A DNA stretch of 64,000 nt from Candidatus Hydrothermales bacterium (GTDB lineage Bacteria; Hydrothermota; Hydrothermia; Hydrothermales; JAJRUZ01): contig JBCNUW010000001.1 in the NCBI GenBank assembly GCA_039630575.1, positions 32,659-96,658 on the forward strand, given 5' to 3'. Shown one piece after another: positions 14,025 to 29,397 of the stretch. Position numbers and translations under genes: made by a program. A model generated the notes under the pieces. It saw only the letters and a program-made list of their open reading frames with translations. It had not been told where the DNA came from and did no database searches. How positions within the stretch are numbered: the first letter of the stretch is position 1; every line of letters begins with the position of its first letter.

Positions 14025-17000
14025 ATGAAAGTCAAAAGATTTTTAGTTACATTTTCTGTTTTATTCCTCCTTGTTATTTTATTTTTTGTTTCATATTCAT
14101 TTGCTATTTGGAAGACTAAAAAAGATATAAAAACAAGACTTCAGGATTTTTTAGGTGAAAAAGTAGAGTTTGAAGATTTAAAAGTAAGTTTCACAGAGTT
14201 TAAATTTAAAAGTTTAAAGAGTGATTGGTTCTCTATAAAAAAATTTTCTGTTGATTTCAATATTTTCGCTGTAATTTTTTTTAAAAACTTAGGAACTTTT
14301 GAAATTGATTCACTCAAATTAGACCTTGATTCACTTTTTAGTTTTTTAAAAAGAAAAATAAATTTAGATAAAAAAGATGAAAAAAAAGATTTAGTATACT
14401 TTGTTGTAGAGGACATTAATATAAAAAATATTATTCTAAAATATAAAGAAACTTCGCATCTTTTTAAGAACTTAAAAATTTCTTTCAGAATACAAGATAG
14501 TGAGTATCAAATTATTGTCAAGTTTCATTCACCAACTTTCTTCGATCTTAAGGGCAAAGTAATTATTTTAGGAAAAGGGAGAGATTTTAAAATTTTTACA
14601 AAAAACTTGAACTCAAAGATTTTCAGTGTAAACCTAATAGGAAATTTGAAAGGTGAACATTTTGAAGCCACTTTAAATAACTTTTATATTAAAGGTCATA
14701 TACTCGACAAAATTGATGTTAAGGGTAAGATAAATAAATATGGTATTAAAGTTGATAGAATGGATATAAAGTCAAATTTAGCTAATTTAAATGTGAATTT
14801 TATTTTTGAAGATTGGGAATTTAGAGGATTTTTAGTCGGGAATTTAAATTTAGACAAAATAAAGTCATTTGTTTCAAGCAAATTTAACATTGATTTAAAG
14901 AGTGAGATGTTTTATGGTGATATTTTATTAAAAAATTTAATTTATAAAAATTTTAAATTTGATACGATTTTTTACAGCGGTAAAATATATAAAAATTTAG
15001 AAATCGAGCCAGATTCCTTTTATATTTTCTCAGAATTATTAAAAATTTATGGCAAAGGTAGATTAAAGGAAATAGATTTCAAAATTGAGTACTTATCCCA
15101 AAAATTTTTAGAGAAATTTAGTTTTCTTAATTTAGATGGAGGTTTTAATCTTAAAGGAACAGGAATCTTAAAAATCAAAAAAAAAGATTTTGATATGATA
15201 ACTCAAGGTATAATTGAAAACCTTTTTATAAAGGATATTAAATCGGATACAATAAATTTTACTCTTAACAGAAAAGATGGTGTAAACAACATAAATTTTT
15301 ATTCTAAAAAAATTTATTTCAAAAATTTTGCTGGTTCTGTTGATATATTAAGATTGAACTTTTTAAATTTTGATAGCTTTAATTTTGTTTTAAAGGGAAA
15401 TTTACCTTTCTTTGGAAATTTTGAAGAAGAAGGTGATTTCATCAATAAAGTAAATAGAAAAATTTTAAAAATTAAAAGTGGTATAATTTATTTACATCCT
15501 GTTTTGGATATAAAATTAGATTCTCTTAAATTTCTAAACGGATATTTAAAAGCCAAAAAAGAGAATGAGATTTTGAAAATAAATATTTATAATTTAGATC
15601 TTTCGTATTTACCCTATCTCAATTTAATTGGTAAAGTGAACTCACGTATATATTTAATATCTCAAGATTTTAGCTTTAAGCTTGTTGAGGGCAATATAAA
15701 GTTAAGTAACTTTTTTTATAAATTTATAAGCCTAGATTCACTGAATTTTTCATTCAGAAGTGAAAAAGATGTAATTACTGGTGATGGCTTTTTTACAAGA
15801 AATGGTAAAGAAGGAGAGATAAAATTTAACCGTTCAAATCAAGAAACAGAATTTGAAATTTCAGGAGTTGATTTTAATATAACTGATTTTGATATTTTTT
15901 TCCGTGAGCTATTCAAACTGGAGGGAGGAAACTACAGTTTTAGATTTAAAGGAAGATTAGATAAGGATAGAAAATTTAGATATATAGCTAGATTAAATTG
16001 TGACAACCTACAAGGAATTTTTTATCCTGTAGTCACAAATTTTGAACGGACAAAAGTTTATCTTGTATTTATGAACGACACATTCAGTTATGATTTTCAA
16101 GGTTTAAGTGAAGATGGACAAATAAAGGGAAGTGGTATAGGTAAACTTGGTATTTTAGAAAAAGGATTTAATTTAAGTGGAAAAGTAAAACTCAAGAATG
16201 TAAAGATTTATCCAGTTCAAAACATCGATGCTAATGTTGATGGTGAAGTTATTTATGTTAAAGATCATAGAGGGCTTCATATTGAGGGGGATCTTTTTGT
16301 AAATAAGTGTTTTATATACCCTTATTTTGAAAAAGAGGATTTAAAAAGTTTTTCAAAGACTTATTTAAATTTAAATTTAAAGGGTGAAAATATATTTATA
16401 TCCAGCGAATATTTAAATGCAGAGCTAAAAGGAAGTTTGATTATTTTTACACCAGATTTTAAGAGAAAGGTTTTTAAAGGTAGGTTTGATGTTAAAAGGG
16501 GTAATATTTTTTATCTTGGGAAAATTTTTGATATAAAAGGAATTTCTTATGTAGAGTTAAAGGGGGAAGAAAAATTTGATCCTGAACTTTTTGTTGAAGC
16601 CGAAACTTACCATTTTGATCCCATCGGTAATAGAAAAATAAAAATTTTTGTTAATGTAAAGGGAAAACTCTCAGCACCTCAATTTTTCTTAAGTTCAGAG
16701 CCTCCAGTTTATAGCGAAAGTGAGCTACTTAGACTTTTAACTTTAGGTGAGGAAGTTGTTGGATCAACTATTATTGAAGGTGCTGTATCTCAAGAAATAA
16801 GAAAAAGACTAAAGGTTGAAGAGTTAATGATTACAGGTCTTTTAAAAGGTGATCCTACATTTACTGTGGGGACATACATTACTCACAATGTATATTTCAA
16901 ATATTCACAGGCTCTTATAGATCGTTCAAGAAATTTGTATCTTTTAAAATATTTTTTACTACCAAGTTTATCAATATATACAGAGAAGGACGAAAAGGGA

Positions 17001-17039
17001 AGTTTACAAAGTGGTGTAGAGTTTGAGCTAAGGTTTTAA
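14025..17039 (+). CDS. TamB/AsmA-like translocation and assembly module protein
   Basis: N-terminal TM anchor, long beta-rich body, C-terminal TamB-like region (GKLSAPQFFLSSEPP...ELLRLLTLG...GVEFELRF). Confidence 0.75.
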   Translation: MKVKRFLVTFSVLFLLVILFFVSYSFAIWKTKKDIKTRLQDFLGEKVEFEDLKVSFTEFKFKSLKSDWFSIKKFSVDFNIFAVIFFKNLGTFEIDSLKLDLDSLFSFLKRKINLDKKDEKKDLVYFVVEDINIKNIILKYKETSHLFKNLKISFRIQDSEYQIIVKFHSPTFFDLKGKVIILGKGRDFKIFTKNLNSKIFSVNLIGNLKGEHFEATLNNFYIKGHILDKIDVKGKINKYGIKVDRMDIKSNLANLNVNFIFEDWEFRGFLVGNLNLDKIKSFVSSKFNIDLKSEMFYGDILLKNLIYKNFKFDTIFYSGKIYKNLEIEPDSFYIFSELLKIYGKGRLKEIDFKIEYLSQKFLEKFSFLNLDGGFNLKGTGILKIKKKDFDMITQGIIENLFIKDIKSDTINFTLNRKDGVNNINFYSKKIYFKNFAGSVDILRLNFLNFDSFNFVLKGNLPFFGNFEEEGDFINKVNRKILKIKSGIIYLHPVLDIKLDSLKFLNGYLKAKKENEILKINIYNLDLSYLPYLNLIGKVNSRIYLISQDFSFKLVEGNIKLSNFFYKFISLDSLNFSFRSEKDVITGDGFFTRNGKEGEIKFNRSNQETEFEISGVDFNITDFDIFFRELFKLEGGNYSFRFKGRLDKDRKFRYIARLNCDNLQGIFYPVVTNFERTKVYLVFMNDTFSYDFQGLSEDGQIKGSGIGKLGILEKGFNLSGKVKLKNVKIYPVQNIDANVDGEVIYVKDHRGLHIEGDLFVNKCFIYPYFEKEDLKSFSKTYLNLNLKGENIFISSEYLNAELKGSLIIFTPDFKRKVFKGRFDVKRGNIFYLGKIFDIKGISYVELKGEEKFDPELFVEAETYHFDPIGNRKIKIFVNVKGKLSAPQFFLSSEPPVYSESELLRLLTLGEEVVGSTIIEGAVSQEIRKRLKVEELMITGLLKGDPTFTVGTYITHNVYFKYSQALIDRSRNLYLLKYFLLPSLSIYTEKDEKGSLQSGVEFELRF

Positions 17040-17046
17040 TTTTTAA

Positions 17047-18225
17047 TTATTTTTTAAACTTTAAATCTTTCCATAAAGTTTCGAAGAATTCTCTTAAGTA
17101 TGAAAGATTCTGATCTCTTTTAACTCTTTCAAAAAATTCAAGAATATAAATCAGTGAGATAGAAAAAAAGAAAGATAGAAAAATTCCACCTAAAAGGATA
17201 TGACTCCTTTTAGGAGTCTTTTTGTATTTTGAGTAACCTGGCTTAGAAACAATACTGAAGAAAGGTATATCTCTTGAAGCTTCAATTTTTGTGTTTTCTA
17301 GTTCACTCATAAGATTTTTGTAAATTTCAGAAAGGGATTCAATTTTTCTCCAAAGACGTGCCAATTTTACACTGATTTCAGGAACCATTGAAAGAGATGA
17401 ACCAAATCCTGCACCGAAACCGCCTTTTTTATTTCTATTTTCTATACCTTCAATTTCTTTTTTTAGTTCTAAATATCTCTTTTTTAATCTTTTTAACTCA
17501 ATATCGTTTGTATCCTTTATTACTGATAGCATAGTTTTATAATCTATCTCGGCTTCGATTTCCTCTTTTTTTAATTCTGCATATTTTGGAAAAATGTTGT
17601 TAAATTCTTCTTCTATATTGTGAACACCATATTTTAATTTTAGTAGTTTATAGGTATCCTCTACAGCTTTCAGTTCTTTTTCTACAAGGAAAAATCTTTC
17701 TTTTAGTAAGTTTTCCCTCTTTTCATAAAATTGATTGTGGATTTTCTTTATGAAATTTTCTAAATTTTTTAGAATTTCGTTTAAAATTTTTGTTCCTGTT
17801 AAAGGATTTTTATAAACTAAACTGATATTTATCATTCCGCTTTTCTGTATGTTTACTTTATAAAATTCTCTAAACTTTTTTAAAGCTTCATCCATATCTT
17901 TTGCTTTTAGAGTCTCAATCAAACCAAATTTTTCTATTACAGGGGACAATATTCCACTTTCCTCTGAAAGTGAGGCTAAAATATCGGAAGGAGTTATATA
18001 AACCCCGTAACTTATTGGAATAAGTTGAAGTAAAGTTAAATATTCTGAAGGTAAAGTTTCACTATGTATTGGTTCAGCCTTATAGGGCATAATTATTGTT
18101 GATATTATATATTTTTGCGGTATTAAAAAGGTTAAAAGAAGAACTAAAAAAGTAGAAAATATAAAGAATTTATAAAATAGTTTTCTCCATTTTAAAAAAA
18201 TTTCAAAAATTATTTTGAATTCCAT
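17047..18225 (-). CDS. Polysaccharide co-polymerase / chain-length determinant (Wzz/GumC-like, no kinase domain)
   Basis: Two terminal TMs flanking a coiled-coil periplasmic region; Pro-rich motif before the C-terminal TM (SKPGYSKYKKTPKR). Confidence 0.75.
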   Translation of the reverse strand: MEFKIIFEIFLKWRKLFYKFFIFSTFLVLLLTFLIPQKYIISTIIMPYKAEPIHSETLPSEYLTLLQLIPISYGVYITPSDILASLSEESGILSPVIEKFGLIETLKAKDMDEALKKFREFYKVNIQKSGMINISLVYKNPLTGTKILNEILKNLENFIKKIHNQFYEKRENLLKERFFLVEKELKAVEDTYKLLKLKYGVHNIEEEFNNIFPKYAELKKEEIEAEIDYKTMLSVIKDTNDIELKRLKKRYLELKKEIEGIENRNKKGGFGAGFGSSLSMVPEISVKLARLWRKIESLSEIYKNLMSELENTKIEASRDIPFFSIVSKPGYSKYKKTPKRSHILLGGIFLSFFFSISLIYILEFFERVKRDQNLSYLREFFETLWKDLKFKK

Positions 18226-18854
18226 GGTATTATTATTACATCACCGTCTAAAAGGAATGGGTTTTGTGTAAGATCTCCATTTTTGAAATATTGCTCTATT
18301 TGTATAGTATCAATTTGATTTTCCCTTTTTAAAATAACCTTTTCTACATTTTTTGAGAGTGCCTCTTTTAAAAATTCAGATAGTCTTTTTAAACCATCAG
18401 TGTAATAAATACCTGGTTTTTCTAAGTTTCCCACTACATGAACTTCAATTGGGGCTGTTTCTGTAACAAACACTCTAATTTCTGTTCCTTCGAATTTTTT
18501 CTTTATTATCTCATTTATCTCTTTTTCTACTTCTTTTATTTTTTTACCACTTACTTTAAAAAAACCAAGATTTGGACCACTTATTTCTGAAATTGGGATA
18601 TTTGAAAATTTTAAAGAAGTAGGTGTTGTTATTATCCATATTTCACCAGTGTGTGTGACCTGTTGCATATAAACTTGGTTATAGGTTCCAAAAAAAACTA
18701 TTGTTAAAATATCACCCCTTTTGATCTTGTAATCTTCGCTAACAAGATATGCTTTTGAGTTTGAAATATAGGGAATAAATTTAGATGGAACTTCGTAATA
18801 AATGATCCTCTCAGAGTTTGACAAGATTTGTGTAGCAAAAATTACAAAAAGCAT
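18210..18854 (-). CDS. Polysaccharide export protein-like (Poly_export plus SLBB domain)
   Basis: YKIKRGDILTI, VHVVGNLEKPGIY and NPFLLDGDVIIIP motifs. ATG 18854 is preferred over TTG 18878 because a TAAAAT box lies 5 nt upstream. Confidence 0.75.
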   Translation of the reverse strand: MLFVIFATQILSNSERIIYYEVPSKFIPYISNSKAYLVSEDYKIKRGDILTIVFFGTYNQVYMQQVTHTGEIWIITTPTSLKFSNIPISEISGPNLGFFKVSGKKIKEVEKEINEIIKKKFEGTEIRVFVTETAPIEVHVVGNLEKPGIYYTDGLKRLSEFLKEALSKNVEKVILKRENQIDTIQIEQYFKNGDLTQNPFLLDGDVIIIPWNSK

Positions 18855-18902
18855 TATTGATTTTAAAATAAAAAACAATATATAATCAAATGAAGTAACC
18901 TT

Positions 18903-19931: not shown

Positions 19932-20184
19932 CAGACACTACGCTTTTGTTCTAATAAAAGTTCAAGTTGGGAAAGTGCCTTCAGTTGCTCAAAGACTTTA
20001 TAATATAAATGAAGTTAGGGAAATATTTATGGTTACAGGACCTTTTGATGTTCTTGCTATCATTGAGACAGAAAGTTATGAAAGATTAGGAGACATACTT
20101 GCAGAAGAAATTCAAAAAATACCTGGAATAGTTGAAACACAAACATTAATGGCCTTTAGAACCTATAAATACTTAGAAAAATGA
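19924..20184 (+). CDS. Lrp/AsnC ligand-binding (RAM) domain protein, no HTH
   Basis: AFVLI...VTGPFDVLA...IQKIPGIVETQT pattern; SD AAGGAG at 19911-19916 supports ATG 19924. Confidence 0.85.
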   Translation: MPNRHYAFVLIKVQVGKVPSVAQRLYNINEVREIFMVTGPFDVLAIIETESYERLGDILAEEIQKIPGIVETQTLMAFRTYKYLEK

Positions 20185-21914
20185 GAAAATTTTTTTTAAT
20201 TTTAGTTCTTTTTAATTTTTATCTTTTTGCAACGATCACAAGTTTTACTGTTACCCCATCCAATTTTACAGTTGGGGATTACGTAACTATTTCAATTACA
20301 GCTGATAGAGACGGAGCAATTTCGTTTTTTTTAGCTAACAGTACAAACCTGATTTATCCTAACACTGGTAATATAATAGGAGGCGTTTACCAAGGTTTAC
20401 ATAGAATTTTAAAAGCCGGGATAGACTCAATTTATGTAGCCGGAACCCCAGGAAATGCCTATAGCAATCCCTTTACTTCAAACCCAAAACCCCCAAGTAG
20501 AGTTATCATTTTATTTAACAATCAGCTTCATCTACCTGGTGATAGTATAAACAAGGGGCGAAGTTCAATTTCCTTACCAATTTTTCCTGTAGGAGAGCGT
20601 ATAAAATTTAATGTTAAACTAACTGACATTTTTTATAACGAAAGTCCTTATTCTGATACTTTAAATATAAACATCATCACTGATGACCCATACGCCACAA
20701 TTACTGATTCCGTTTATTTTTTACCAGGAGAAACCACTAAAGATGTAGAAGTTATTTTCAAAAGAGCAACAATTCCTTATCAGTTTTCTCCTAATGATAG
20801 AAGAGTTTTATATGGTCTTGTATCTGTGTCAAATTTTAAGGGAGATACTGCAAGGTATAACATAAATTCGCCTTTCTTTCATGTTAAATCCGGTGATTAC
20901 TCAAAACTTTTGATTCTTGAATACTGGGATTCTTCAGGTGTAATACAAGGAGAAATTTTTGATCCAGGAAATGAAAGTGTTGGAAAGATTTCAAAATTCA
21001 AACCCCATCCTTCTGGTTTAAATTTTTGGCTTGAGGCTCTAGCATGTGATCGTTACTTTAACAGGGTTACTGAAAATAACTTAAAGGTATTTTTAAATTT
21101 TGATACACCTCTTCCCCAAGGAAGTACTGTTTATCCTGAAACGGTAAACTTGAGAGATGGAAGAGACACATTTACACTTAACATAGTATCCTCTGGGCTT
21201 TATTCATGCTACCTTAATGATAAAGTTTTTAATATTAAAAGCAGCGGAGAATTAATTGACATAAGAGGCAACTTCTATAATATAACAGTAGATCCAGATA
21301 CAATTCTTTCCTGTACCCAACTTTTCAGATTCATTTTAAGGTACTATGATGTTTCAGGAAATCAAACAAATTCAAATCATAAAGTTTTTTTGAGTCCAGT
21401 AATAGCATCTAATAGAAATCAAAGATCTAAAGGTTATCTATCTGATACAGCCTTTAATTTAACTCAGGGAATTTTAGATGTATACTTAAGATACTGTACA
21501 AGTGCACCTTTTGAGGAAATATCAATAAAAGTTACTGATGAAATAGGGACATATCCTTTCTTTTCTGAGCCTATATTTGTAAATAGTTTTTCGGTAGGGG
21601 GTGATACCTTTTCGGTCTATCCAAATCCTTTTGGAAATGTAAAATATACTGGAGTAAAATACGATATGCTTAATATTGAATTTTATCTTCCTGAACCATC
21701 TGATGTAGAGATTTCTATTTATGATCTTTTTGGACACCCTGTAAAGAAACATAGAATTCCGTCACTTTCTCCTGGTAAGCATAAGTTAACATGGGATGGA
21801 AGAAACGACTTAGGTAAAAAGGTTTCAAGTGGTTCTTACATTTTAATTCTTAATGCTGTAAAGGGGGCAAGAACAGTTTATAAAAAAATAAAAAGTATTT
21901 CAGTAATATGGTGA
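20181..21914 (+). CDS. Secreted beta-rich protein with C-terminal T9SS-type sorting / FlgD-Ig domain
   Basis: Sec signal MRKFFLILVLFNFYLFA; Ig-like body; C-terminal VYPNPF...ISIYDLFG...TWDGRNDLGKKVSSGSYIL. Confidence 0.75.
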   Translation: MRKFFLILVLFNFYLFATITSFTVTPSNFTVGDYVTISITADRDGAISFFLANSTNLIYPNTGNIIGGVYQGLHRILKAGIDSIYVAGTPGNAYSNPFTSNPKPPSRVIILFNNQLHLPGDSINKGRSSISLPIFPVGERIKFNVKLTDIFYNESPYSDTLNINIITDDPYATITDSVYFLPGETTKDVEVIFKRATIPYQFSPNDRRVLYGLVSVSNFKGDTARYNINSPFFHVKSGDYSKLLILEYWDSSGVIQGEIFDPGNESVGKISKFKPHPSGLNFWLEALACDRYFNRVTENNLKVFLNFDTPLPQGSTVYPETVNLRDGRDTFTLNIVSSGLYSCYLNDKVFNIKSSGELIDIRGNFYNITVDPDTILSCTQLFRFILRYYDVSGNQTNSNHKVFLSPVIASNRNQRSKGYLSDTAFNLTQGILDVYLRYCTSAPFEEISIKVTDEIGTYPFFSEPIFVNSFSVGGDTFSVYPNPFGNVKYTGVKYDMLNIEFYLPEPSDVEISIYDLFGHPVKKHRIPSLSPGKHKLTWDGRNDLGKKVSSGSYILILNAVKGARTVYKKIKSISVIW

Positions 21915-23173
21915 TTTTAAATATATTAAAATTTTTATTTTTAGGAGCCTGGGGTATGCCAGGTTCCTTTATGTTATACTCACCCTCTGCAAGATCCTTT
22001 GCTTTGGGTTCAGCATACACAGCTTTTGTGGGTGACCCTGCCTCCATATACTTCAATCCAGCAGGAATTGCTGAATCAAATCCTCAAGAAATTCAATTTT
22101 CACAGAGTTCTCTACCTCTTGGAGGTAACTATGGATGGGTAGGATATGTAAGGCCGACACAGAAAATTGGTAATTTTGGAGCAGCTCTTTTATTTGTGAA
22201 TTCAGGTAAGACAAAAGTTACTGATCCTGAAAACAAGTTTGGCGGAAATTTTGTTCATTTTGAATCAGCCTTTTATCTAACTTACGCGAAGGAACTTTCA
22301 AATTATGTTGATGCTGGATTGTCTTATAAGTTGCTTTATAAAACAATATCAAGATTTTCCTCTTTAGGTCATGCATTTGATCTTGGTTTTATCTTTTTAC
22401 CTCAAAATGTTTTTAAGGTTGGCGTTGCCTTTTTAAATCTACTAAATGTTCCTTATAAATTAATAGAGGAATCAGAAAAAATTCCACTAACAATTAGGGC
22501 AGGAATTTTATCAAGTTTTTTTGAAGGAAAATTTAATTTGCTTTTTGATTTTTATAATGTAAATGAATGGAATGAGAACTATTATTCTTTTGGAGCAGAG
22601 TACTACCCTGTTGATATTCTCTCTCTAAGGGTTGGTATGACAAAGTACAGTTTTACAGCTGGATCAGGAATCTTTCTTAAACTTCCAGGTAAAAGAATAG
22701 GTATAGATTTGGGTGGTTCTTATCATTATGAGAGTAACAACTTGTTTCCCTTCACTGGATTTATTACTCTTTATTTTCAATTTGCTGGATTTCGTGTTGA
22801 AGTTGCTCCAAATGTTAGAGTTTTTTCTCCCAAATCTCCAGAAAATAACATATTAAGGATTGATCTTTTTACTCAAGCAAGAAAAGAGGTTGAAAGATGG
22901 CAATTTGTTATAAAGGACTATAAAGGTGAAATTAAAAGGATTTATAAAGATTTTGGTGAAGCACCTAAAGAAATTTTATGGGACGGAAGAGATGACCTTG
23001 GTATACTTGTTCAAGATGGTTCTTACTATTATGAATTTAGAGTTGTTCAAAGGGATGGTAGTGTACTTATAGATACAGGTTTTCTTTCAGCAGTTAGAAC
23101 TATAGGACCAAAGGGTGAAATTTTTTATAGGGAAAAAGTTGAAGAAGAAATAAAAGAGGAAGAAGTAAAATGA
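21908..23173 (+). CDS. PorV/PorQ-family outer-membrane beta-barrel fused to a C-terminal FlgD-Ig domain
   Basis: SARSFALGSAYTAFVGDPASIYFNPAG (PorV/FadL-type N-terminus), alternating barrel strands, C-terminal WDGRDDLG...DGSYYY. Confidence 0.8.
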   Translation: MVILNILKFLFLGAWGMPGSFMLYSPSARSFALGSAYTAFVGDPASIYFNPAGIAESNPQEIQFSQSSLPLGGNYGWVGYVRPTQKIGNFGAALLFVNSGKTKVTDPENKFGGNFVHFESAFYLTYAKELSNYVDAGLSYKLLYKTISRFSSLGHAFDLGFIFLPQNVFKVGVAFLNLLNVPYKLIEESEKIPLTIRAGILSSFFEGKFNLLFDFYNVNEWNENYYSFGAEYYPVDILSLRVGMTKYSFTAGSGIFLKLPGKRIGIDLGGSYHYESNNLFPFTGFITLYFQFAGFRVEVAPNVRVFSPKSPENNILRIDLFTQARKEVERWQFVIKDYKGEIKRIYKDFGEAPKEILWDGRDDLGILVQDGSYYYEFRVVQRDGSVLIDTGFLSAVRTIGPKGEIFYREKVEEEIKEEEVK

Positions 23174-25938
23174 TTTTTCTCGTACTTATTACTATTTTAT
23201 TTTCTCCACAGGAAATTAGATTAATTGAAGATGCAGAACTTGTTTTCCATGAGGGTCTTTATAATGAGGCAATAAATCTTTACGATAAAATCCTTAAGAC
23301 AAATTTAGGTAAAGAAATGAAAAACGAAATTCTCTTTAGAATAGGAGAATGTTATTTTAATTTGGGAGAATATGGAAAGGCACTAAAAGTTTTTGAAGAT
23401 TTAGAGTTTAGGACACGTAAAACTTACCTTTATCCGGAAGTTCTCTATGCATTAGGTATTGTTCATTTAGCACTTGATCATTATGATAAAGCGAAGTTTT
23501 ATCTAGTTGAAAGGATAAAGGAGTTTCCCTCTTATGTAAATGATGTGAGGATAAGTGAAGGGCAGGGGATTTATTATTTTACACAGACAATATATGAAAG
23601 TGGTTATGAAAAATTAAAAAATGCAATTTCAGGAGTGGGTATTTTTTATAAAGCTTTAACGCTTGCAAGATTAAAAAGACCTGTTGAAGCTTTGAAAGAG
23701 TTCAAAAAAGTTCAGTTGCTTTACCCTCTTACACCACTTTCAGAATACGCATCTTATGAATCAGCTGAAGCTATGTTTATCAACAATGACTTTACCGGGG
23801 CTTTAAATTTATATCAAAAATTTATTGAACAATTTGGTATTTCTCCTCTTGTTGACTATGCAAAATACAAAATAGGAGTTTGTTATCTTCACCTTGGTTT
23901 ACCATCTCAAGCGTTAACCTATTTTAATGCTCTACTTGGACATCCCGATGAAATTCTAGTTTCCCACTCCTATCTGATGGGTGGGATAGCTTTAAGGGAG
24001 ATGAAGGACTATGAAAAATCAATTAAATATCTTTTAAAATCTGCTTTTGACTTTCCTCAGGTAGGCTCTGCTCCTTTAGCTCATATGGAACTTGGAAAAA
24101 CATACCTTTTAACTGGGAATCATGAACAGGCGCTTATAGCCTTTAAACAACTTGCAAACACTTATGTAACAGGAGAATTTGCAGGTTTAGGAGACTACCT
24201 TGCTGCAAGTATTCTCTATCAAAATAAAAGAATTTTGGAAGCTCAGTTTCAACTCGAAAACCTTATAAAATATTATCCTAAATCTCATATAATTCCTGCT
24301 GCATACGTTCTACTTTTAAAATGTATGATTGATACAAGACAAACAAAAGAAGCGATTTTAAGAGGTGAAGAATTTTTTAAGAGTGAAGTTTATAAACTTG
24401 ATGGATTAAATGAAAATTATAGGGAGAAGTGGTTCAATAGAATAAAATTAATGTTAGCAGAGGCTTATTATCAGGAGAGAGATTTACAGAATGCAATAAA
24501 ATACTATGAAGAATTGGTTGAGAGTGGAGATCCTGATATCATGCCTGAGGTATTCAATGGCCTTGGTTGGTGCTATCTTGAGAGCGAAAGATACGAAGGT
24601 GCAATTCAAAAATTTGATGTAGTAATCAGTTCATATCAAAGGGATACTCTTGCCCTTGTATCTTCTATTTTTGGTAAAGCAGTCACAATATATAATTCTT
24701 GTGCATTTTTACAAGATCAGTCCCAGAAAGAAGAAAGGTTCAAAAATGCTGCCTTTACTTTTAAGGAAGTTGTAAGACTTTATCCTTATTCTGAGCTTGC
24801 TCCTGCCTCTTTATTTTATGCAGGAGACGCTTTTGCAAAAGCAAACCTTTATGGTAACGCTGTCCAGGAATGGGATGCAGTTTTATCGGAATATCCTAAC
24901 ACAGAGTATGCGGGTTATGCAGCCTATTGGTTAGGCGACACCTATTTTAGGGCTGGAGAATTAGAAAAGGCTGTTTCTTATTTTAAAATCTTACTTGAAC
25001 AGTATCCGGAGAACAAATTTGTAAAAGAGGGATATTTGAGATTAGCATCAACTTACTATACCATGAAGGATTATGACAATGCCAGGGATATTATAAAGAA
25101 ATTTCTTTCTTTATTTCCTGAGGATTCACTTGTAAGGGATGCCAAATCTCTTTTAGAACAGGTTTATTATTTTAAACTTGAGGAAGAGCCGGAAAGGTTA
25201 GAGGAATATGCAAAAGAGTTTCCAGAAAGTGAACTACTTGCGCAACAACTCTATAGGGAAGCGGTAAAGCTCTATAATGAAAAGAAGTTTGAAGAAGCAA
25301 TTGAAAAAGCAAAGAGAGTTATACTTCTTTTCCCTTCTTCCACGAATGCAGCAGAAGCACAAAAGGTTGTTGTAGCTTCCTATGGTGCTTTAAACAATTT
25401 CAAAGCAATGGCTGAGGAAGCAGAAAAATTTGTTCAGTATTTCCCCCAACATGAGGAAGTACCTGTGATGCTAAAAGCGGAGGCTCAAGGTTTGATACAA
25501 ATAGAAGACTATATTAAAGCAAGTGAAGTTCTAGATAAACTGATATCAAATTATCCCTCAAGTCCATTGGCAAAGGAGGGAATAATTCTTAAGGCAGAGG
25601 TTTTATTAAATTTAGGTAAGTTGAGAGAGAGTATAAAGATCCTTGAGGAGACTTCACCAACAGAGGAATATGCTACAAGATACTATTATCTTTTAGGAGA
25701 GGCTTATAATAAGTTAGGTCAACCAGATAGGGCAATAAACTATTATTTATCTCTTTTAAAATTCGGAGATATGGATGATCCTTACAGGATAAAAGGACTT
25801 TATACACTTGCAAATCTTTATCAGTTAAAAGGTGATAATAGAAATGCGGCAGCTATTTATGAAGCTGTTGCTCAGATAACAACTGATCAAAATATAAAAA
25901 ATGATGCCCTTTCAAGGGCAAGTATTTTAAAAAAGTAA
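23170..25938 (+). CDS. Large tetratricopeptide-repeat protein (922 aa), probably periplasmic
   Basis: Many TPR units of the BamD/CpoB type (e.g. AAYWLGDTYFRAGELEKAVSYFKILLEQYP); short hydrophobic N-terminus. Confidence 0.85.
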   Translation: MIFLVLITILFSPQEIRLIEDAELVFHEGLYNEAINLYDKILKTNLGKEMKNEILFRIGECYFNLGEYGKALKVFEDLEFRTRKTYLYPEVLYALGIVHLALDHYDKAKFYLVERIKEFPSYVNDVRISEGQGIYYFTQTIYESGYEKLKNAISGVGIFYKALTLARLKRPVEALKEFKKVQLLYPLTPLSEYASYESAEAMFINNDFTGALNLYQKFIEQFGISPLVDYAKYKIGVCYLHLGLPSQALTYFNALLGHPDEILVSHSYLMGGIALREMKDYEKSIKYLLKSAFDFPQVGSAPLAHMELGKTYLLTGNHEQALIAFKQLANTYVTGEFAGLGDYLAASILYQNKRILEAQFQLENLIKYYPKSHIIPAAYVLLLKCMIDTRQTKEAILRGEEFFKSEVYKLDGLNENYREKWFNRIKLMLAEAYYQERDLQNAIKYYEELVESGDPDIMPEVFNGLGWCYLESERYEGAIQKFDVVISSYQRDTLALVSSIFGKAVTIYNSCAFLQDQSQKEERFKNAAFTFKEVVRLYPYSELAPASLFYAGDAFAKANLYGNAVQEWDAVLSEYPNTEYAGYAAYWLGDTYFRAGELEKAVSYFKILLEQYPENKFVKEGYLRLASTYYTMKDYDNARDIIKKFLSLFPEDSLVRDAKSLLEQVYYFKLEEEPERLEEYAKEFPESELLAQQLYREAVKLYNEKKFEEAIEKAKRVILLFPSSTNAAEAQKVVVASYGALNNFKAMAEEAEKFVQYFPQHEEVPVMLKAEAQGLIQIEDYIKASEVLDKLISNYPSSPLAKEGIILKAEVLLNLGKLRESIKILEETSPTEEYATRYYYLLGEAYNKLGQPDRAINYYLSLLKFGDMDDPYRIKGLYTLANLYQLKGDNRNAAAIYEAVAQITTDQNIKNDALSRASILKK

Positions 25939-25976
25939 AATGAGTTCTAATCTCTTAAAAAATTTTAAAATTTAAA

Positions 25977-26621
25977 ATGATTTTAGGACAACCAATTTTA
26001 AAATTGGCATTAAACCCCTTTATGCTTGTGCTTGAGATCTCCTCGATTTTCGCTTTATGGGCTATTATTGATAGATTTATTGCCTATATGAAATTATCAG
26101 AAAAGGAAGAGCAAAAGATGATTGATAGAACAAAACTTTTAATAGAAAAAGGGAGGTTTGAAGAATTAAAGGCTTTTTCTTCTGCATTAAACAGACCATT
26201 TGCTAAGATTATTAATTTATTGGCGGAGAATATTCACTATCCAAAGGAAGTTTTAGAATCTGTTTTGGAAAGTGCATTAATGCTGACAAGACTTGAACTT
26301 GGTAAAAAATTAAACATTCTTGGAACAATAAGTTATATTGCCCCATTACTTGGACTTTTAGGTACAGTGGTAGGAATTATCCAAGCTTTTTACGCGGTTG
26401 CACAGAAAGGTGCAGCAGTAGGTCCTGAAGCAATGATGGAGGGAGTTGCCATTGCTCTTTTGACAACAGCTCTTGGAATAATGATTGCAGTTCCCTGTGC
26501 AATAATGTATAATTATTTTAGAAATAAAATAGACCACCTTATGGCAAGAATAGAAGTGTCAGCAGAAGAGATTATGAATTTTATGATCTATGTTAAAGAA
26601 CAAAAAGAAAAAGTTCTATGA
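25977..26621 (+). CDS. exbB: MotA/TolQ/ExbB proton channel family protein
   Basis: APLLGLLGTVVGII and ALLTTALGIMIAVP motifs. Confidence 0.92.
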   Translation: MILGQPILKLALNPFMLVLEISSIFALWAIIDRFIAYMKLSEKEEQKMIDRTKLLIEKGRFEELKAFSSALNRPFAKIINLLAENIHYPKEVLESVLESALMLTRLELGKKLNILGTISYIAPLLGLLGTVVGIIQAFYAVAQKGAAVGPEAMMEGVAIALLTTALGIMIAVPCAIMYNYFRNKIDHLMARIEVSAEEIMNFMIYVKEQKEKVL

Positions 26622-27040
26622 TAAGGAAAAAGAAAAGAATAAAAGATACAGATTTTGAGCTTGATTTGACTCCTGCTATAAGTGTTGCCTTGATCCTCGT
26701 TTTAATATTTATAACTGGAGCAACACAGATTTTTCAAACTTGGTTAACTGTGACTTCTCCCAGAGTAAGAAAAGCACCTCAAGTAATTGAAAAAGAACAG
26801 AAAACAGAATTTAAGGTTAATATCCATCTTTTATCAAGTGGCCAAATTTTATTAAATGAAGAGGTTATCACTCAAAAAAAACTTGATTCACTACTTCCTG
26901 AGTTGATGATAAGGAGTGCTACAGGACTTGTTTTAGTAAGTGCAGATTCTGAAGTAGAACATGGAAAAGTTGTTGAAATAATAGATCTTGCAAAACAAAA
27001 AGGTGCAAGAGAAGTAGCTTTATTAAAGAGGGTAAAGTAA
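26618..27040 (+). CDS. exbD: ExbD/TolR family protein lacking the conserved TM Asp
   Basis: LDLTPAISV TM start and ADSEVEHGKVVEIIDLAKQKGA periplasmic motif. Confidence 0.85.
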   Translation: MIRKKKRIKDTDFELDLTPAISVALILVLIFITGATQIFQTWLTVTSPRVRKAPQVIEKEQKTEFKVNIHLLSSGQILLNEEVITQKKLDSLLPELMIRSATGLVLVSADSEVEHGKVVEIIDLAKQKGAREVALLKRVK

Positions 27041-27474
27041 TGGAGAATAACAAAGGTGAGTTTGCAAAAATTAACGTAACACCCTTGACAGATGTCGCTT
27101 TTACGTTACTGATTACACTTATGCTTGTTACATCTTATATGGCAGTAAAACAACCGCCTTTCAGAGTAATTTTACCAGATGTAGAAACAGTTGAACCAAG
27201 AGGAGCAGATGTTGTTACTCTTGACTTAGATGAAAAAGGTGAAAATCTTGCAATAAACGGGTATATTATAAAATGGGACAATTATATAAAGGTTTTGAAG
27301 GAGGAAGCGATGAGAGATCCATATAGGTTGCTTCTTATAAGAGCAGACAAAGGAACACCTCATGGTGTTGTTATGAAGGTTCTTTCTGATATAAAGAAAA
27401 TGAATTCGGAATTAATTTTAGAGGATAAAGAAAGCTTTTCAAAAATTGCTTTTGGAACAAGAAAGAAAAGATGA
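27040..27474 (+). CDS. exbD: ExbD/TolR family protein
   Basis: INVTPLTDV (Asp retained) and IRADKGTPHGVVMKVL motifs. Confidence 0.9.
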   Translation: MENNKGEFAKINVTPLTDVAFTLLITLMLVTSYMAVKQPPFRVILPDVETVEPRGADVVTLDLDEKGENLAINGYIIKWDNYIKVLKEEAMRDPYRLLLIRADKGTPHGVVMKVLSDIKKMNSELILEDKESFSKIAFGTRKKR

Positions 27475-28526
27475 AAGTTTCAACTTCTAAAGCATATGGG
27501 TATATATATAAAACTCCTAAGTATTCAAATTATACAGGGTTTACAGTATCGTTAATAGTTCATGCACTGATTTTATTACTTTTACTTTTAAGACAAAGTG
27601 TTTACAGTGAAGGGACTTCACTATCGGTAACATTATTAGAAGAGGAAATTAAAAAGAGAAAAATAGAGGAAAAGAGAGAAACTGTAAAAAAAGAGGAAGA
27701 AAAAAAACCGGGTCCAGAAGTTAGACATAAACCTAATCTTTTTGCAGCTATACAGAGAACAATAGAACCACCACCACCGATAACAAACATAAATATAAAA
27801 CAAAAAATAGACGTACCAAAAATTGAAATATCAAAGAATTTACCAATTGAACCAGCACCTATTGTTCCTTTAAAGGACATTGAAATTAAGTCTGTTACAG
27901 AAGATATAGGTCCTCAAGCGAAGATAGATATAAAATCTTTAAAAATAGAAGAATCGGGTATCGGATCAGATATAGTTGTTGGACAGGGGGCTCCCACATC
28001 AGAAATTCTCAAAAGACCAGCTTACAAACCGACTGTTGATATATCCAAGCAAGTTGCAGAAAGTGGTTTGGGTCAAGGTGGAATTGCTCAATGGGGTCCA
28101 GGAGGCGGTAGTGGTACTGTTGGGTCTAAAAAAGTTGAATTAAAAGTTAAGATGGAAGAGCCTCCACCTTCTTCTCCTTTACCTTCACCTTCTACTTCTT
28201 TTAAGCCTGAGATTAGAAAAAAAGAGAAAAAAATAGAAGTTGAAATCTCGGGTTCTATAGCAGGAAGAAAGATAATTGCAAAATTTCTGCCTTCTTATCC
28301 CTCCTGGGCAGCAGAGAGGGGAGTTGAAGCTGCTATTACAGTAAAAGTAGAAGTTGAACCGGACGGCACTGTTAGAAAAAATGTATTAGTTATAGGAACA
28401 AGCGGATATCCTAATTGGGACAATATTGTAAAAAATTCTGTCCTGTCTTGGAAATTTGAATCTTTACCAAGTGATATTAAAACAATTCAATCAGGTTATA
28501 TAACTTTTAGATTTATTCTTGAATGA
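27471..28526 (+). CDS. tonB: Energy transducer TonB family protein
   Basis: TM with SLIVHA (SxxxH), Pro/Lys/Glu-rich linker, TonB_C domain (PSYPSWA...VEVEPDGTV...SGYPNWD...WKF). Confidence 0.88.
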   Translation: MKVSTSKAYGYIYKTPKYSNYTGFTVSLIVHALILLLLLLRQSVYSEGTSLSVTLLEEEIKKRKIEEKRETVKKEEEKKPGPEVRHKPNLFAAIQRTIEPPPPITNINIKQKIDVPKIEISKNLPIEPAPIVPLKDIEIKSVTEDIGPQAKIDIKSLKIEESGIGSDIVVGQGAPTSEILKRPAYKPTVDISKQVAESGLGQGGIAQWGPGGGSGTVGSKKVELKVKMEEPPPSSPLPSPSTSFKPEIRKKEKKIEVEISGSIAGRKIIAKFLPSYPSWAAERGVEAAITVKVEVEPDGTVRKNVLVIGTSGYPNWDNIVKNSVLSWKFESLPSDIKTIQSGYITFRFILE

Positions 28527-28533
28527 TAATTAG

Positions 28534-29397
28534 ATGAAAAGGTTAATAAATTTTTGTCTTTTTTCATTTCTTTTCTTTTTATATTTGCATGCTCAGGAAT
28601 CTCAATCACCTCAGCAAGAAGTTGAAATCAAAGCTAAATATAAGGGAAAGATAGAAGAAAGAAAACCGATATGGAAGTTAACCTTTAATCTCTTTGATGC
28701 TGCCTACGATCAATTTAAAAATAAGGGTTATATTTTCGATCAAAGATTTGGAAAGGGCAGAATAAAACCACCTTTGCCGTCACTAGCCTCTGAGGAGCTT
28801 AGGAAACCTTGGCTTAATAGTATTGTAAGAGGTGAAGTCGGTATATTCTACCCATTTTATGGTCGAGATTTAAAAAAGTGGAAATTAACAATACTGGATG
28901 GAAAAGGTAAAGTTTTTAGAGTTTTTTCAGGAGAAGACGAGCCTCCGACGAAAATAGTCTGGGATGGAAGGAATGAAAAGGGAGAAGTTCTTGATGTGAG
29001 TTTACTATATTTTTATACTGCAGAAGCAGAGGATGAAGCAGGAAACATTTCAAAAACACCAGAAAGACCCATAAAGCTCTCCGGAATACTCTGGCAAGAT
29101 GGTGTAAACTTTATAATATCTGTTGACGGAAATGAAATTTTTGAAGAAAATTCAGATAGAATAAAAAGGGTTGAGCTATTAGAGGAATCTTTAAGTATAA
29201 TAAAAGAAAAAGCTCAAGTTAAAGTAGAAGTAGTTGTTTATGGTCAAAACCCTGAACTAACAAAAAAAAGATATGAAAATGTCTTAAAATACTTAAGAGA
29301 AAATTTAAGAATACCAAAGGGAAAAGTAATTTATATGGAAGGGTATTTTAAAAGAACTGGTTACGAAACTTCAAGGATAGATTTTAAAATCTTATAA
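28534..29397 (+). CDS. Exported protein with FlgD-Ig domain and degenerate OmpA-like C-terminal domain
   Basis: Signal peptide ending LHA/Q; WKLTILDGKG...WDGRNEKG; C-terminal IFEENSDRI...LTKKRYENVLKYL...SRIDF resembling OmpA_C. Confidence 0.6.
   Translation: MKRLINFCLFSFLFFLYLHAQESQSPQQEVEIKAKYKGKIEERKPIWKLTFNLFDAAYDQFKNKGYIFDQRFGKGRIKPPLPSLASEELRKPWLNSIVRGEVGIFYPFYGRDLKKWKLTILDGKGKVFRVFSGEDEPPTKIVWDGRNEKGEVLDVSLLYFYTAEAEDEAGNISKTPERPIKLSGILWQDGVNFIISVDGNEIFEENSDRIKRVELLEESLSIIKEKAQVKVEVVVYGQNPELTKKRYENVLKYLRENLRIPKGKVIYMEGYFKRTGYETSRIDFKIL

Follow-up and report, generated by a model that had tools for sequence, protein, structure and literature searches.

Eight adjacent genes (20181..29397, plus strand) form a conserved operon in which a dedicated Ton/Tol-type motor may pull on gene 8 and thereby release or re-anchor one carrier-stalk complex, a reading to which we assign a probability of roughly 0.45. 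The element that appears to be new, judging from sequence comparisons, is a conserved, disordered TonB-box-like strand that opens gene 8 and is seen again on extra TPR proteins. No account of such an operon was found in literature searches.

Organization and conservation of the operon

The window, meaning the whole 64,000-nucleotide stretch analysed, belongs to a little-studied bacterium of the WOR-3 group. An ORF check placed all eight genes where the initial annotation had them. Their products are 577, 421, 922, 214, 140, 144, 351 and 287 aa long (genes 1 to 8), and the seven junctions, in order -7, -4, +38, -4, -1, -4 and +7 nt, bear out the close coupling first described. The block is also kept as a unit, with gene order complete in 33 of a chosen set of 40 WOR-3 loci, and the operon core is found in FCPU426 and Elusimicrobiota as well. 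The flanks vary among loci, and no conserved catabolic or inner-membrane transport genes were found adjoining the block. Among 121 WOR-3 genomes the operon is present in 71 and absent from 50; whole families do without it, which means that essentiality sets no constraint on its purpose. The gene for the barrel with its Ig domain (barrel-Ig, gene 2) occurs in 70 of the 71 WOR-3 genomes that encode the long TonB of gene 7, the sole exception being G010, which has stops in TonB and gene 8. At one locus (L022) the motor and gene 8 are located away from genes 1-3.

Of 8 Elusimicrobiota genomes with the motor core, only 2 gave a barrel-Ig match over the full length at E <= 1e-50; the link to the barrel is therefore not universal. 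Six Elusimicrobiota loci read TPR-ExbB-ExbD-ExbD-TonB-gene 8 with no adjoining barrel gene, one of them with an Ig-repeat/OmpA protein within the operon, and at L166 and L167 CTD and barrel-Ig pairs lie apart from the motor. These arrangements, together with the YbgF/CpoB-like TPR protein, favor a purely periplasmic, Tol-like envelope-remodelling motor, in which the motor, the TPR protein and gene 8 would act on the wall or on division and genes 1 and 2 would be accessory. We consider this quite unlikely, given that WOR-3 genomes have both barrel-Ig and the long TonB or neither, with G010 as the one exception, and that a rearranged Elusimicrobiota block (L162) has TonB, gene 8, CTD and barrel-Ig together again. 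Moreover, TolB is found alongside the operon in 13 of 13 genomes of family f12; thus, Tol-Pal has not been replaced by the operon. The genome studied here likewise has a separate Tol-like operon on contig C29 (Pal-TolQ-TolR-TolA-TolB-like), assigned by gene order and sequence, whose TolB was not picked up by PF04052.

The motor genes

Gene 4 (25977..26621) encodes a motor subunit of the ExbB/TolQ family, genes 5 (26618..27040) and 6 (27040..27474) encode ExbD-like subunits, and gene 7 (27471..28526) encodes a long TonB-like transducer with transmembrane Ser27 and His31, a middle region of the form IDL...DVI...STEEIL and a TonB_C domain at aa 274-350. The TPR, ExbB, ExbD and TonB assignments originally made from the translations hold, with family matches to TPR (gene 3), MotA_ExbB (gene 4), ExbD (genes 5 and 6) and TonB_C (gene 7). 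As in the Ton system, all three motor families (ExbB, ExbD, TonB_C) score above cut-offs, the transmembrane Ser and His of TonB are kept, and a box-like strand is present. Among 39 gene 7 homologues the Ser is found in 33 and the His in 38, and at most 31 residues precede the His in 33, leaving a short cytoplasmic N-terminus. The transmembrane Asp is absent from gene 5 (Ser22) and present in gene 6 (Asp18). WOR-3 ExbD pairs retain at least one proton-path Asp in 40 of 40 cases and have exactly one partner with it in 38 of 40; its loss occurs in either partner and never in both. The ExbB-ExbD-ExbD'-TonB motor is likely proton-driven, and these pairs amount to a natural experiment that asks if one proton path is enough for a 5:2 motor.

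Gene 4 belongs to a paralogue lineage apart from the TBDT-linked and Tol-like ExbBs of the same genome. An ordinary extra TonB system serving TonB-dependent transporters encoded elsewhere would fit the five TBDT matches in the genome, the presence of TBDTs in 115 of 121 genomes and the passing of TonB_C cut-offs by gene 7. This explanation is very improbable: a separate short-TonB operon adjoins a TBDT and falls into a tightly conserved clade of its own, and the long TonB is followed by gene 8 in every case where the contig continues. The block further differs from the Ton system in containing no TBDT, in carrying its box on a periplasmic Ig+OmpA protein instead of a plug domain, and in the length of its TonB, which has 290-380 aa and includes a conserved stretch in the middle, where the TBDT-linked TonB has about 205 aa.

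The barrel and its surface partner

Gene 1 (20181..21914) encodes a signal peptide, an Ig-like stalk and a C-terminal T9SS-CTD-like domain. The YPNPF...WDGR ending recognized at the outset is present, and the protein passes FlgD_ig with 40 bits (cut-off 27); both type A CTD models remain under their cut-offs (Pfam 14.4 against 27, TIGR04183 19.7 against 23). A profile built from gene 1 tails recovers many of the TIGR04183-passing cargo proteins of the genome, and one gene 1 homologue passes the CHU_C model instead of the type A CTD. The stalks of gene 1 homologues are Big_1/invasin-like; the smallest homologue has 120 aa (the CTD alone, L049) and the largest more than 1,417 aa (L097). The passenger dwindles to nothing in L049, L048 and L025, whose proteins measure 120-211 aa; in some lineages the cargo is shrunken to a bare CTD or located outside the operon, and at two loci of family f8 the barrel is not preceded by a CTD gene. 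Gene 1 is likely a dedicated surface partner of gene 2.

Gene 2 (21908..23173) encodes a 14-stranded barrel of the PorV/FadL fold with an NPA hatch, followed at the C-terminus by an Ig domain of the FlgD type (aa 296-396) that is predicted to be periplasmic. It passes the PorV family model (NF033709, 92.8 bits, cut-off 90) and falls under the cut-offs of the PorV and PorQ equivalog models; four further PorV-family members above cut-off are encoded elsewhere in the genome. The label of PorV-like barrel is therefore supported by the family match and incomplete as a description, since the predicted model (pLDDT 86.8) has the Ig domain following strand 14. This Ig domain is homologous to that of gene 8 (profile comparison, probability 98.4) and more strongly conserved (0.52) than the barrel itself (0.41), the hatch segment being highest (0.59).

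The invariance of NPA among gene 2 homologues, the conservation of the hatch segment and a structural match of the gene 2 model to FadL (Z 31.2) as good as that to PorV (6h3i, Z 31.7; Bacteroidota BAM-complex chains follow with Z 26) recommend an energized FadL-like import or lipid channel, in which the motor would gate the barrel for a hydrophobic substrate through the periplasmic Ig and gene 1 would serve as a lid. A 14-stranded barrel with an N-terminal NPA hatch is common to FadL/TodX and PorV, so these features do not decide membership; the barrel is of the PorV family by sequence, the putative TonB box is on gene 8 rather than the barrel, and the neighborhood lacks conserved catabolic or inner-membrane transport genes. 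Such a channel is accordingly improbable.

Gene 8 and its TonB-box-like strand

Gene 8 (28534..29397) encodes an exported protein with a disordered arm (aa 21-95), a FlgD/CTD-type Ig domain (96-186) and a degenerate OmpA-like domain (187-287), and is homologous over its full length to an Elusimicrobiota protein (probability 99.8). The OmpA-like part proposed in the initial annotation has no HMM match and emerges in the predicted model, which resembles DotK/TssL/MotB folds (Z 11.5-12.6). No lipobox was found in 39 gene 8 homologues. The canonical OmpA-like peptidoglycan-binding site comprises a conserved Asp and an Arg. In gene 8 homologues the Arg of LSxxR is kept in 29 of 38 and no Asp is conserved; VYS occupies what we take to be the place of the canonical GHTD, so peptidoglycan binding by gene 8 is uncertain.

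No segment of gene 8 is more conserved than the box-like strand (28618..28668, aa 29-45, EVEIKAKYKGKIEERKP; 0.56), which has the family consensus EE[VE][IV][KT]G...KI.EKKP. In 38 WOR-3 sequences, position 32 is I or V in all 38, position 34 is G in 27, and positions 40 (I) and 44 (K) are each kept in 34. The region has a pLDDT of about 50 and no secondary structure in the model. Distant homologues carry QLDDVVV, LPEVVIKG, PEEVVVKG or LTDVVIVG at the EEVIxG strand, and a loose pattern, derived from these same sequences, matches 34 of 52 arms, where shuffles give 2.8. A short acidic/hydrophobic strand may also be conserved for other reasons.

Among the neighbors in which a TonB target had been expected, this N-terminal box is a plausible candidate, and it is predicted to be the binding site of the gene 7 TonB_C domain. 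In both Tol and Ton, TonB-fold domains are described as binding disordered N-termini through beta-augmentation (PMC8928145), and GltF has been modelled as binding GltG in this manner (PMC11761067). Gene 3 (23170..25938) encodes an exported, YbgF/CpoB-like TPR protein of 922 aa, likely a periplasmic scaffold; no lipobox was found in 47 TPR-labelled ORFs. An arm like that of gene 8 opens extra TPR proteins in or adjoining the operon (L051, E 1e-4; L048, E 1.5e-3), with an hhalign probability of only 48.

Relationship to type IX secretion

The absence of TBDT, TolB/Pal and SprA genes reported at first holds for the block and requires correction for the genome, where SprA, TBDTs and a Tol-like operon are encoded elsewhere. 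Of the components sought by genome profile search, SprA and TBDTs were found and GldL, GldM, GldN and GldK were not. SprA lies at C3:35290-40695, outside the block (TIGR04189, 308 bits, cut-off 200), and 41 of 45 CTD matches in the genome pass TIGR04183 (type A CTD). No GldL or GldM match rose above cut-off, no GldN match was found, and the GldM domain PF12080 was found in 0 of 121 WOR-3 genomes, with the controls silent in each case; the GldK/PorK FGE-sulfatase fold (PF03781) gave no match in this 94.7% complete genome, with a control positive in 3 of 14. Thus, within the limits of these weak controls, no complete PorLM-driven T9SS was seen, in keeping with the first reading.

SprA occurs in 119 of 121 WOR-3 genomes, including all 71 with the operon, and extraction of substrates from SprA is described as requiring energy (PMC10994853). 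The motor could then be the general energy source of a GldLM-less T9SS, extracting all PorV-cargo complexes from SprA with gene 3 as an SprE-like component; gene 3 does match the SprE model, though its 98 bits fall short of the cut-off of 250. This is unlikely, because SprA is kept in 48 of the 50 operon-negative genomes, five of which were tested and have 23-44 type A CTD matches each (these include 3- and 4-contig assemblies, 99-100% complete), and because the ExbB loci of operon-negative genomes are of other types (of 68 loci, 40 were read, from 24 genomes) and fall in other clades. The 48 operon-negative genomes with SprA refute the operon as an obligatory T9SS motor. A general role in CTD-protein secretion, as originally proposed, is not supported, in view of these families and of cargo that shrinks or leaves the operon. 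With so many SprA-bearing relatives lacking the operon, its product is probably a machine in its own right rather than a general export motor.

Comparison with known systems

The operon shares with Tol-Pal an ExbB/ExbD-family motor, a YbgF/CpoB-like TPR protein, an OmpA-like domain and, by prediction here, a TonB-fold domain whose target is a soluble protein of the periplasm bearing a disordered N-terminal strand (compare PMC8928145). It differs in lacking a TolB propeller and a lipoprotein Pal, in joining box and OmpA-like domain on a single chain, and in having two distinct ExbDs, a PorV-like barrel and a CTD protein.

The layout also parallels Agl-Glt of Myxococcus (AglRQS, GltG, GltC/D/E, GltF, GltABH, CglB). 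This part of the suggested Agl/Exb-type hybrid is supported, and its general drive of CTD-protein secretion is not. An ExbD heterodimer with one ExbB-like subunit, a TPR scaffold, a disordered periplasmic strand on the TonB-CTD (modelled in PMC11761067, predicted here) and a surface protein paired with a barrel of the outer membrane (PMC11761067, PMC3169522) are common to both. This architecture and the invasin-like stalk would suit an adhesion or motility machine moving the Ig stalk over the cell surface via the TPR scaffold and barrel, which we regard as doubtful to the point of being distinctly unlikely. The block has no FHA or other cytoplasmic coupling domain, the cytoplasmic N-terminus of TonB is short, the AgmX/PglI tail scores 20.1 bits against a cut-off of 40, and the passenger may be vestigial in size or its gene absent beside the barrel; Luciano et al. 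(PMC3169522) moreover consider the Agl-Glt core alone unlikely to drive motility. The block has a PorV-family barrel and CTD partner instead of GltABH/CglB, and orthologues of GltC, GltD and GltE were not found (GltC 12.4 against 450, and no other Glt model among the best 25 of 26 gene 3 matches). Membership of Agl-Glt was rejected on the missing FHA domain and Glt scores far under cut-offs.

With Bacteroidota the genome shares SprA, and the operon resembles the SprB-SprF carriers, in which a CTD protein has its own barrel with a periplasmic C-terminal extension; dedicated carriers are described for type B substrates (PMC12635249). Here the barrel is of the PorV family and the extension is a folded Ig without the twin cysteines of SprF: at least two Cys occur in the last 130 aa in just 2 of 37 gene 2 homologues, and gene 2 of the window has none there. 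The GldLM-GldKN chain was not found, and the linked motor is ExbB/ExbD/TonB.

Proposed mechanism and significance

We infer the links between genes 2 and 8, the TPR protein and TonB from folds, homology and co-occurrence. SprA would export gene 1, whose CTD would keep it bound to gene 2 in the manner of type B substrates and their carriers. On or beside the TPR scaffold, the periplasmic Ig of the barrel would bind the Ig of gene 8, and the OmpA-like domain would hold peptidoglycan weakly, so that gene 8 would bridge the cell wall and the PorV-like barrel with its surface stalk. The gene 7 TonB_C would likely grip the gene 8 box, rather than a TonB-dependent receptor, and the motor would pull it by beta-strand augmentation, as TolA does on TolB, to free, extract or re-anchor that single carrier-stalk complex. 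Wall and outer membrane would in effect be coupled by a Tol-like clutch, with a T9SS carrier as its anchor in the outer membrane.

A wider and more speculative reading, which we hold to be somewhat unlikely, is that the operon represents a fourth branch of the Ton/Tol/Agl motors wired to type IX parts. In phyla with SprA and without GldKLMN (WOR-3, FCPU426, Elusimicrobiota), TonB would pull a portable box handle on periplasmic adaptors and so power a dedicated PorV-type carrier, as a surviving non-GldLM chain, with most WOR-3 running a single-Asp motor whose Asp was lost independently from either ExbD.

The operon is ruled out as the universal energy source of type IX export outside Bacteroidota. 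The near-universal SprA of WOR-3 and its presence in Elusimicrobiota, with no GldKLMN found, raise the question of what does energize this export. The box peptide makes the preferred reading testable in vitro without culturing the organism. To our knowledge, three kinds of target have been described for TonB-fold transducers, namely TBDT plugs, TolB and GltF (modelled); if the reading is true, these would be joined by a fourth kind, the box of an Ig+OmpA adaptor that is connected with a barrel of the PorV family.

Operon Organization and Distribution in WOR-3

All eight open reading frames proposed in the initial annotation are present (positions 20181 to 29397, + strand) and are closely packed, with junctions of -7, -4, +38, -4, -1, -4 and +7 nt. 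Family scans matched gene 1 to FlgD_ig (40 bits; its type IX secretion system (T9SS) C-terminal domain (CTD) matches were below threshold), gene 2 to PorV_fam (92.8 against a cut-off of 90) and weakly to FlgD_ig, gene 3 to YbgF-like TPR proteins, gene 4 to ExbB, genes 5 and 6 both to ExbD, gene 7 to TonB_C and gene 8 weakly to FlgD_ig. Promoter and terminator scans gave chance-level counts (52 against 43.7 and 7 against 6.1), and P0137/P0256 scans of genome and metagenome contigs returned no loci. Conservation of the mtnA- and Lrp-family genes 5' of the block stops at the genus level. Upstream of the block, at window positions 14025-18878, a TamB-like gene (+) is convergent with Wzz/Wzc-like and Wza/SLBB polysaccharide-export genes (-), a region not kept with the block outside the genus.

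The long TonB (gene 7) was found in 72 of 121 sampled WOR-3 genomes at E <= 1e-25, or 71 once a genome with a partial C-terminal match (G018) was dropped, and a barrel-Ig match extending to the Ig domain in 70. These two genome sets differ in G010 alone, where the TonB and gene 8 matches, on contig C28, are interrupted by stop codons and a barrel-Ig gene went undetected; this copy is either decaying or affected by assembly errors. The view of the block as a unit is borne out in relatives: among 40 loci picked non-randomly from the matches, one to a few per family, 33 have the complete order CTD-barrel-TPR-ExbB-ExbD(s)-TonB-gene 8 and 37 the core from TPR to gene 8. The remaining seven comprise three at a contig edge, two that are split and two (family f8) with no CTD gene before the barrel. 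The operon was found in none of the sampled genomes of families f3 (0/6), f13 (0/3), f15 (0/14) and f29 (0/3).

Some operons depart from this layout by ExbB-ExbD fusions, ExbB duplication or additional TPR genes. Fusion genes adjoining a second ExbB (L018, L021, L023, L024, L050) and ExbB-ExbD-ExbB-ExbD arrays (L022, L026) suggest, from gene layout, that mixed ExbB pentamers may form. In families f11 and f18 a membrane protein of 150-186 aa, HAMP-like by eye, lies between TPR and ExbB (L015-L017, L019, L020).

Motor Subunits and Related Operons in Other Phyla

The long TonB keeps its transmembrane Ser in 33 of 39 cases and its transmembrane His in 38 of 39. Exactly one ExbD carries the transmembrane Asp in 38 of the 40 WOR-3 operon loci from which two ExbDs were recovered, the window included; the Asp is in the first subunit in 24 of these and in the second in 14, as in the window, where gene 6 has Asp18 and gene 5 has Ser22 instead. 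Both subunits have it in two loci and neither in none (0/40). Both have it in all 19 ExbD pairs of other motors, and also in operons outside WOR-3, which were found by a pattern that itself contains the Asp. The simplest reading is that the Asp was lost independently in either partner, with selection retaining one proton path.

Beyond WOR-3, a scan with an ExbD pattern yielded 48 loci. An FCPU426 genome and a MAG sister to it in the tree (L096, L097) have all eight genes in order, and six Elusimicrobiota loci have TPR-ExbB-ExbD-ExbD-long TonB-gene 8, with two more cut by contig ends; gene 8 was absent from the Myxococcota and Acidobacteriota loci of the scan. Gene 8 aligns over its full length with an Elusimicrobiota protein, their box segments superposed (99.8%). 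The Elusimicrobiota genomes with these eight loci have a strong SprA-like match in six cases and a full-length barrel-Ig match in two, one of which also carries a second, rearranged block (ExbD-TonB-gene 8-CTD-barrel-Ig). A purely periplasmic Tol-like motor, to which genes 1 and 2 would be mere accessories, is distinctly unlikely; the operon differs from Tol-Pal in having neither TolB nor Pal.

In a FastTree phylogeny the operon ExbBs of WOR-3, FCPU426 and Elusimicrobiota cluster (support 0.93), apart from the types linked to TonB-dependent receptors (TBDTs), from Tol and from a type designated 'U', with some short-TonB ExbBs of Goldiibacteriota and Polyangiaceae nested inside the group. Look-alike clusters in the Atlas, taken as leads only, come from Elusimicrobiota, Krumholzibacteriota and WOR-3. 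SprA homologues also occur in FCPU426, Goldiibacteriota and Elusimicrobiota (genomes G121-G134). One Elusimicrobiota operon copy has a 1,019-aa Lsa66-like protein, with eight Ig repeats and a canonical OmpA domain, between TPR and ExbB (L114:4701-7760).

Type IX Secretion and Other Motors

The initial annotation had remarked that the window lacks SprA, PorKLMN and TBDT genes, and this holds only in part for the source genome (1.89 Mb, 94.7% complete). SprA is present (308 bits against a cut-off of 200), as are five TBDT matches, five PorV-family genes over the cut-off (gene 2 included), four C25 peptidases and 45 type A CTD matches, 41 of them over the cut-off. The GldK fold is absent from this genome in a search whose control was detected, setting the operon apart from the Bacteroidota-type energy chain; no match to the GldL, GldM or GldN models reached the cut-off, the control genomes also falling below it. 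None of the 121 phylum genomes showed a GldM domain, with a silent control. Because PF04052 did not detect the genome's own TolB-like gene, a warning that family searches overlook divergent members, the absence of GldLM is likely rather than proven.

A general T9SS motor, redundant with others, would resemble the initial annotation's proposal of an Exb-type motor driving CTD-protein secretion, but genomes without the operon keep the secretion machinery. Pfam found SprA in 116 of the 121 genomes, and of the remaining five a custom profile matched three; SprA is present in 71/71 operon-positive and 48/50 operon-negative genomes. Type A CTD matches number 44, 42, 35, 23 and 41 in five operon-negative genomes, two of which are assembled in 3-4 contigs. 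A search of 44 of the 50 operon-negative genomes gave ExbB at 68 places; the 40 places read, from 24 genomes, held neither gene 8 nor a long TonB, and a quick IQ-TREE placed the ExbBs outside the operon lineages, barring one long-branch orphan. Since relatives are not independent, these genomes serve as an existence argument and not as a statistic. Bulk type IX export thus does not need the block, which is not the general T9SS motor; the redundant version of that role is unlikely, and the general role first proposed is not supported.

The source genome has two ExbB loci besides the block. One (contig C12, 127854-136426) encodes ExbB-ExbD-ExbD-TonB (202 aa) with a TBDT directly after it; the other, on C29, is a Pal-TolQ-TolR-TolA-TolB-like operon, assigned by order and sequence. 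That the block supplies merely a spare TonB for TBDTs is highly improbable. In many cases genes for a TBDT, a CTD protein and a PorV-family barrel come after the short-TonB operon of the C12 type (also L052-L091). The ExbBs of this operon group in a tight clade, and families f3 and f15 yielded no other ExbB. The operon is a candidate power source for any other process there that depends on Ton energy, though those genomes do have TBDTs. Six f15 genomes with a Ton motor and no TBDT by PF00593 had hinted that the short-TonB motor powers SprA, an argument withdrawn because the Plug model detected proteins of TBDT size in 5/5 tested. The 'U' motor is ExbB-ExbD-short TonB with a TonB_C resembling the operon's (L062, L069, L074, L077, L080, L082, L088, L090); in L077 (genome G068, contig C52) it is preceded by a 957-aa TPR protein and by a 484-aa protein that is TBDT-like at its C-terminus and matches nothing in NCBIfam.

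The Stalk, the Barrel and Gene 8

The gene 1 passenger is Ig-like, with Big_1/invasin matches in 5 of 11 homologues scanned and no catalytic family in those 11; homologues range in length from 120 aa (L049, with no passenger) to over 1,400 aa. In the gene 2 model (pLDDT 86.8) an Ig domain at aa 296-396 comes after the 14 strands of the barrel. An even strand number in an outer-membrane barrel places the C-terminus in the periplasm, and so that of gene 2 is periplasmic. PorV (Z 31.7, rmsd 3.2, 273 aligned) ties with FadL (Z 31.2) as its closest fold, followed by Bacteroidota BAM complex chains (Z 26); a FadL-like import function is quite improbable. The gene 2 Ig is homologous to that of gene 8 (hhalign 98.4%), and this type of domain forms tandem arrays ahead of OmpA domains in many long proteins.

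In the gene 8 model an arm of low confidence (aa 21-95) precedes an Ig domain (aa 96-186), for which the PorU C-terminus is the best Ig match (Z 9.2); an OmpA-like domain (aa 187-287) follows, with a best Z of 12.6. The named close homologues of gene 8 come from WOR-3, and the nearest of them, 90% identical, is from Candidatus Hydrothermales. Only a variable linker separates the signal peptide from a box in the arm, E-E-[VE]-[IV]-[KT]-G-x5-I-[ED]-[ED]-K-K-P. Although predicted to be unstructured, the box is conserved more strongly (0.56) than the rest of gene 8; the Ig scores 0.48 and the OmpA-like domain 0.41. Distant homologues have QLDDVVV, LPEVVIKG, PEEVVVKG and LTDVVIVG, which resemble TonB boxes; the genome's own TBDT has VEVPPIVVEA where a TonB box is expected. 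A loose box pattern, derived from the same set, matched 34 of 52 arms, where shuffles gave 2.8.

The arm profile drew 90 proteins, 196-319 aa long, and each of those named is from WOR-3 or unclassified; searches of NCBIfam and PDB gave no meaningful match and the Atlas no usable one. A likeness to the TPR-partner barrels of Bacteroidota was not confirmed; the profile drew no barrel-sized protein. A similar arm starts extra TPR proteins in operons of family f30 (L044, L045, L051) and downstream in L048 (15546-17342; EEEVITGEAELEITDFKRP), with modest support (E 1e-4 and 1.5e-3; hhalign 48%). Genomes of f30 also have additional long-TonB paralogues.

Proposed Function and Relation to Known Systems

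The best reading, with a probability of roughly 0.45, is that a dedicated motor pulls gene 8 and so releases, extracts or re-anchors one carrier-stalk complex. The gene 7 TonB_C is predicted to grip the gene 8 box, while the OmpA-like domain, with a degenerate binding site, may contact the wall. Gene 8 would reach the PorV-like barrel at its periplasmic Ig, by Ig-Ig or TPR contacts, the barrel would hold its own SprA-exported stalk (gene 1), and pulling would act on that single complex. Extraction of carrier-substrate complexes from SprA requires energy (PMC10994853). Dedicated carriers serve type B substrates, their periplasmic tails coupled to the energy chain by disulfides (PMC12635249); unlike these, gene 2 lacks such cysteines.

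The operon likely works as Tol-Pal or Agl-Glt do, by a motor pulling a periplasmic strand, here joined to T9SS carrier parts. In the Tol and Ton systems, disordered N-termini are bound by TonB-fold domains through beta-augmentation (PMC8928145). Published Agl-Glt models pair a GltF strand with the GltG TonB-CTD and include an AglQS heterodimer (PMC11761067). The operon differs from Agl-Glt in having no FHA, with Glt models below the cut-off, and Agl-Glt-like motility is improbable. The Agl-Glt core complex, described as of unknown function, has a different gene set (PMC3169522). No account of the operon or of a Ton-powered PorV carrier was found in the listed titles and abstract openings of openly accessible papers, and WOR-3 is unmentioned in related literature among the matches listed.

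SprA is present in 119 of 121 WOR-3 genomes, and no GldM was found in the phylum. The evidence for the gene 8 box, for the single-Asp pattern and for the operon's loss from SprA-bearing families comes from the present analysis. The operon is real and spans several phyla, and within the Ton/Tol/Agl motor family it is a variant that apparently has no earlier description.
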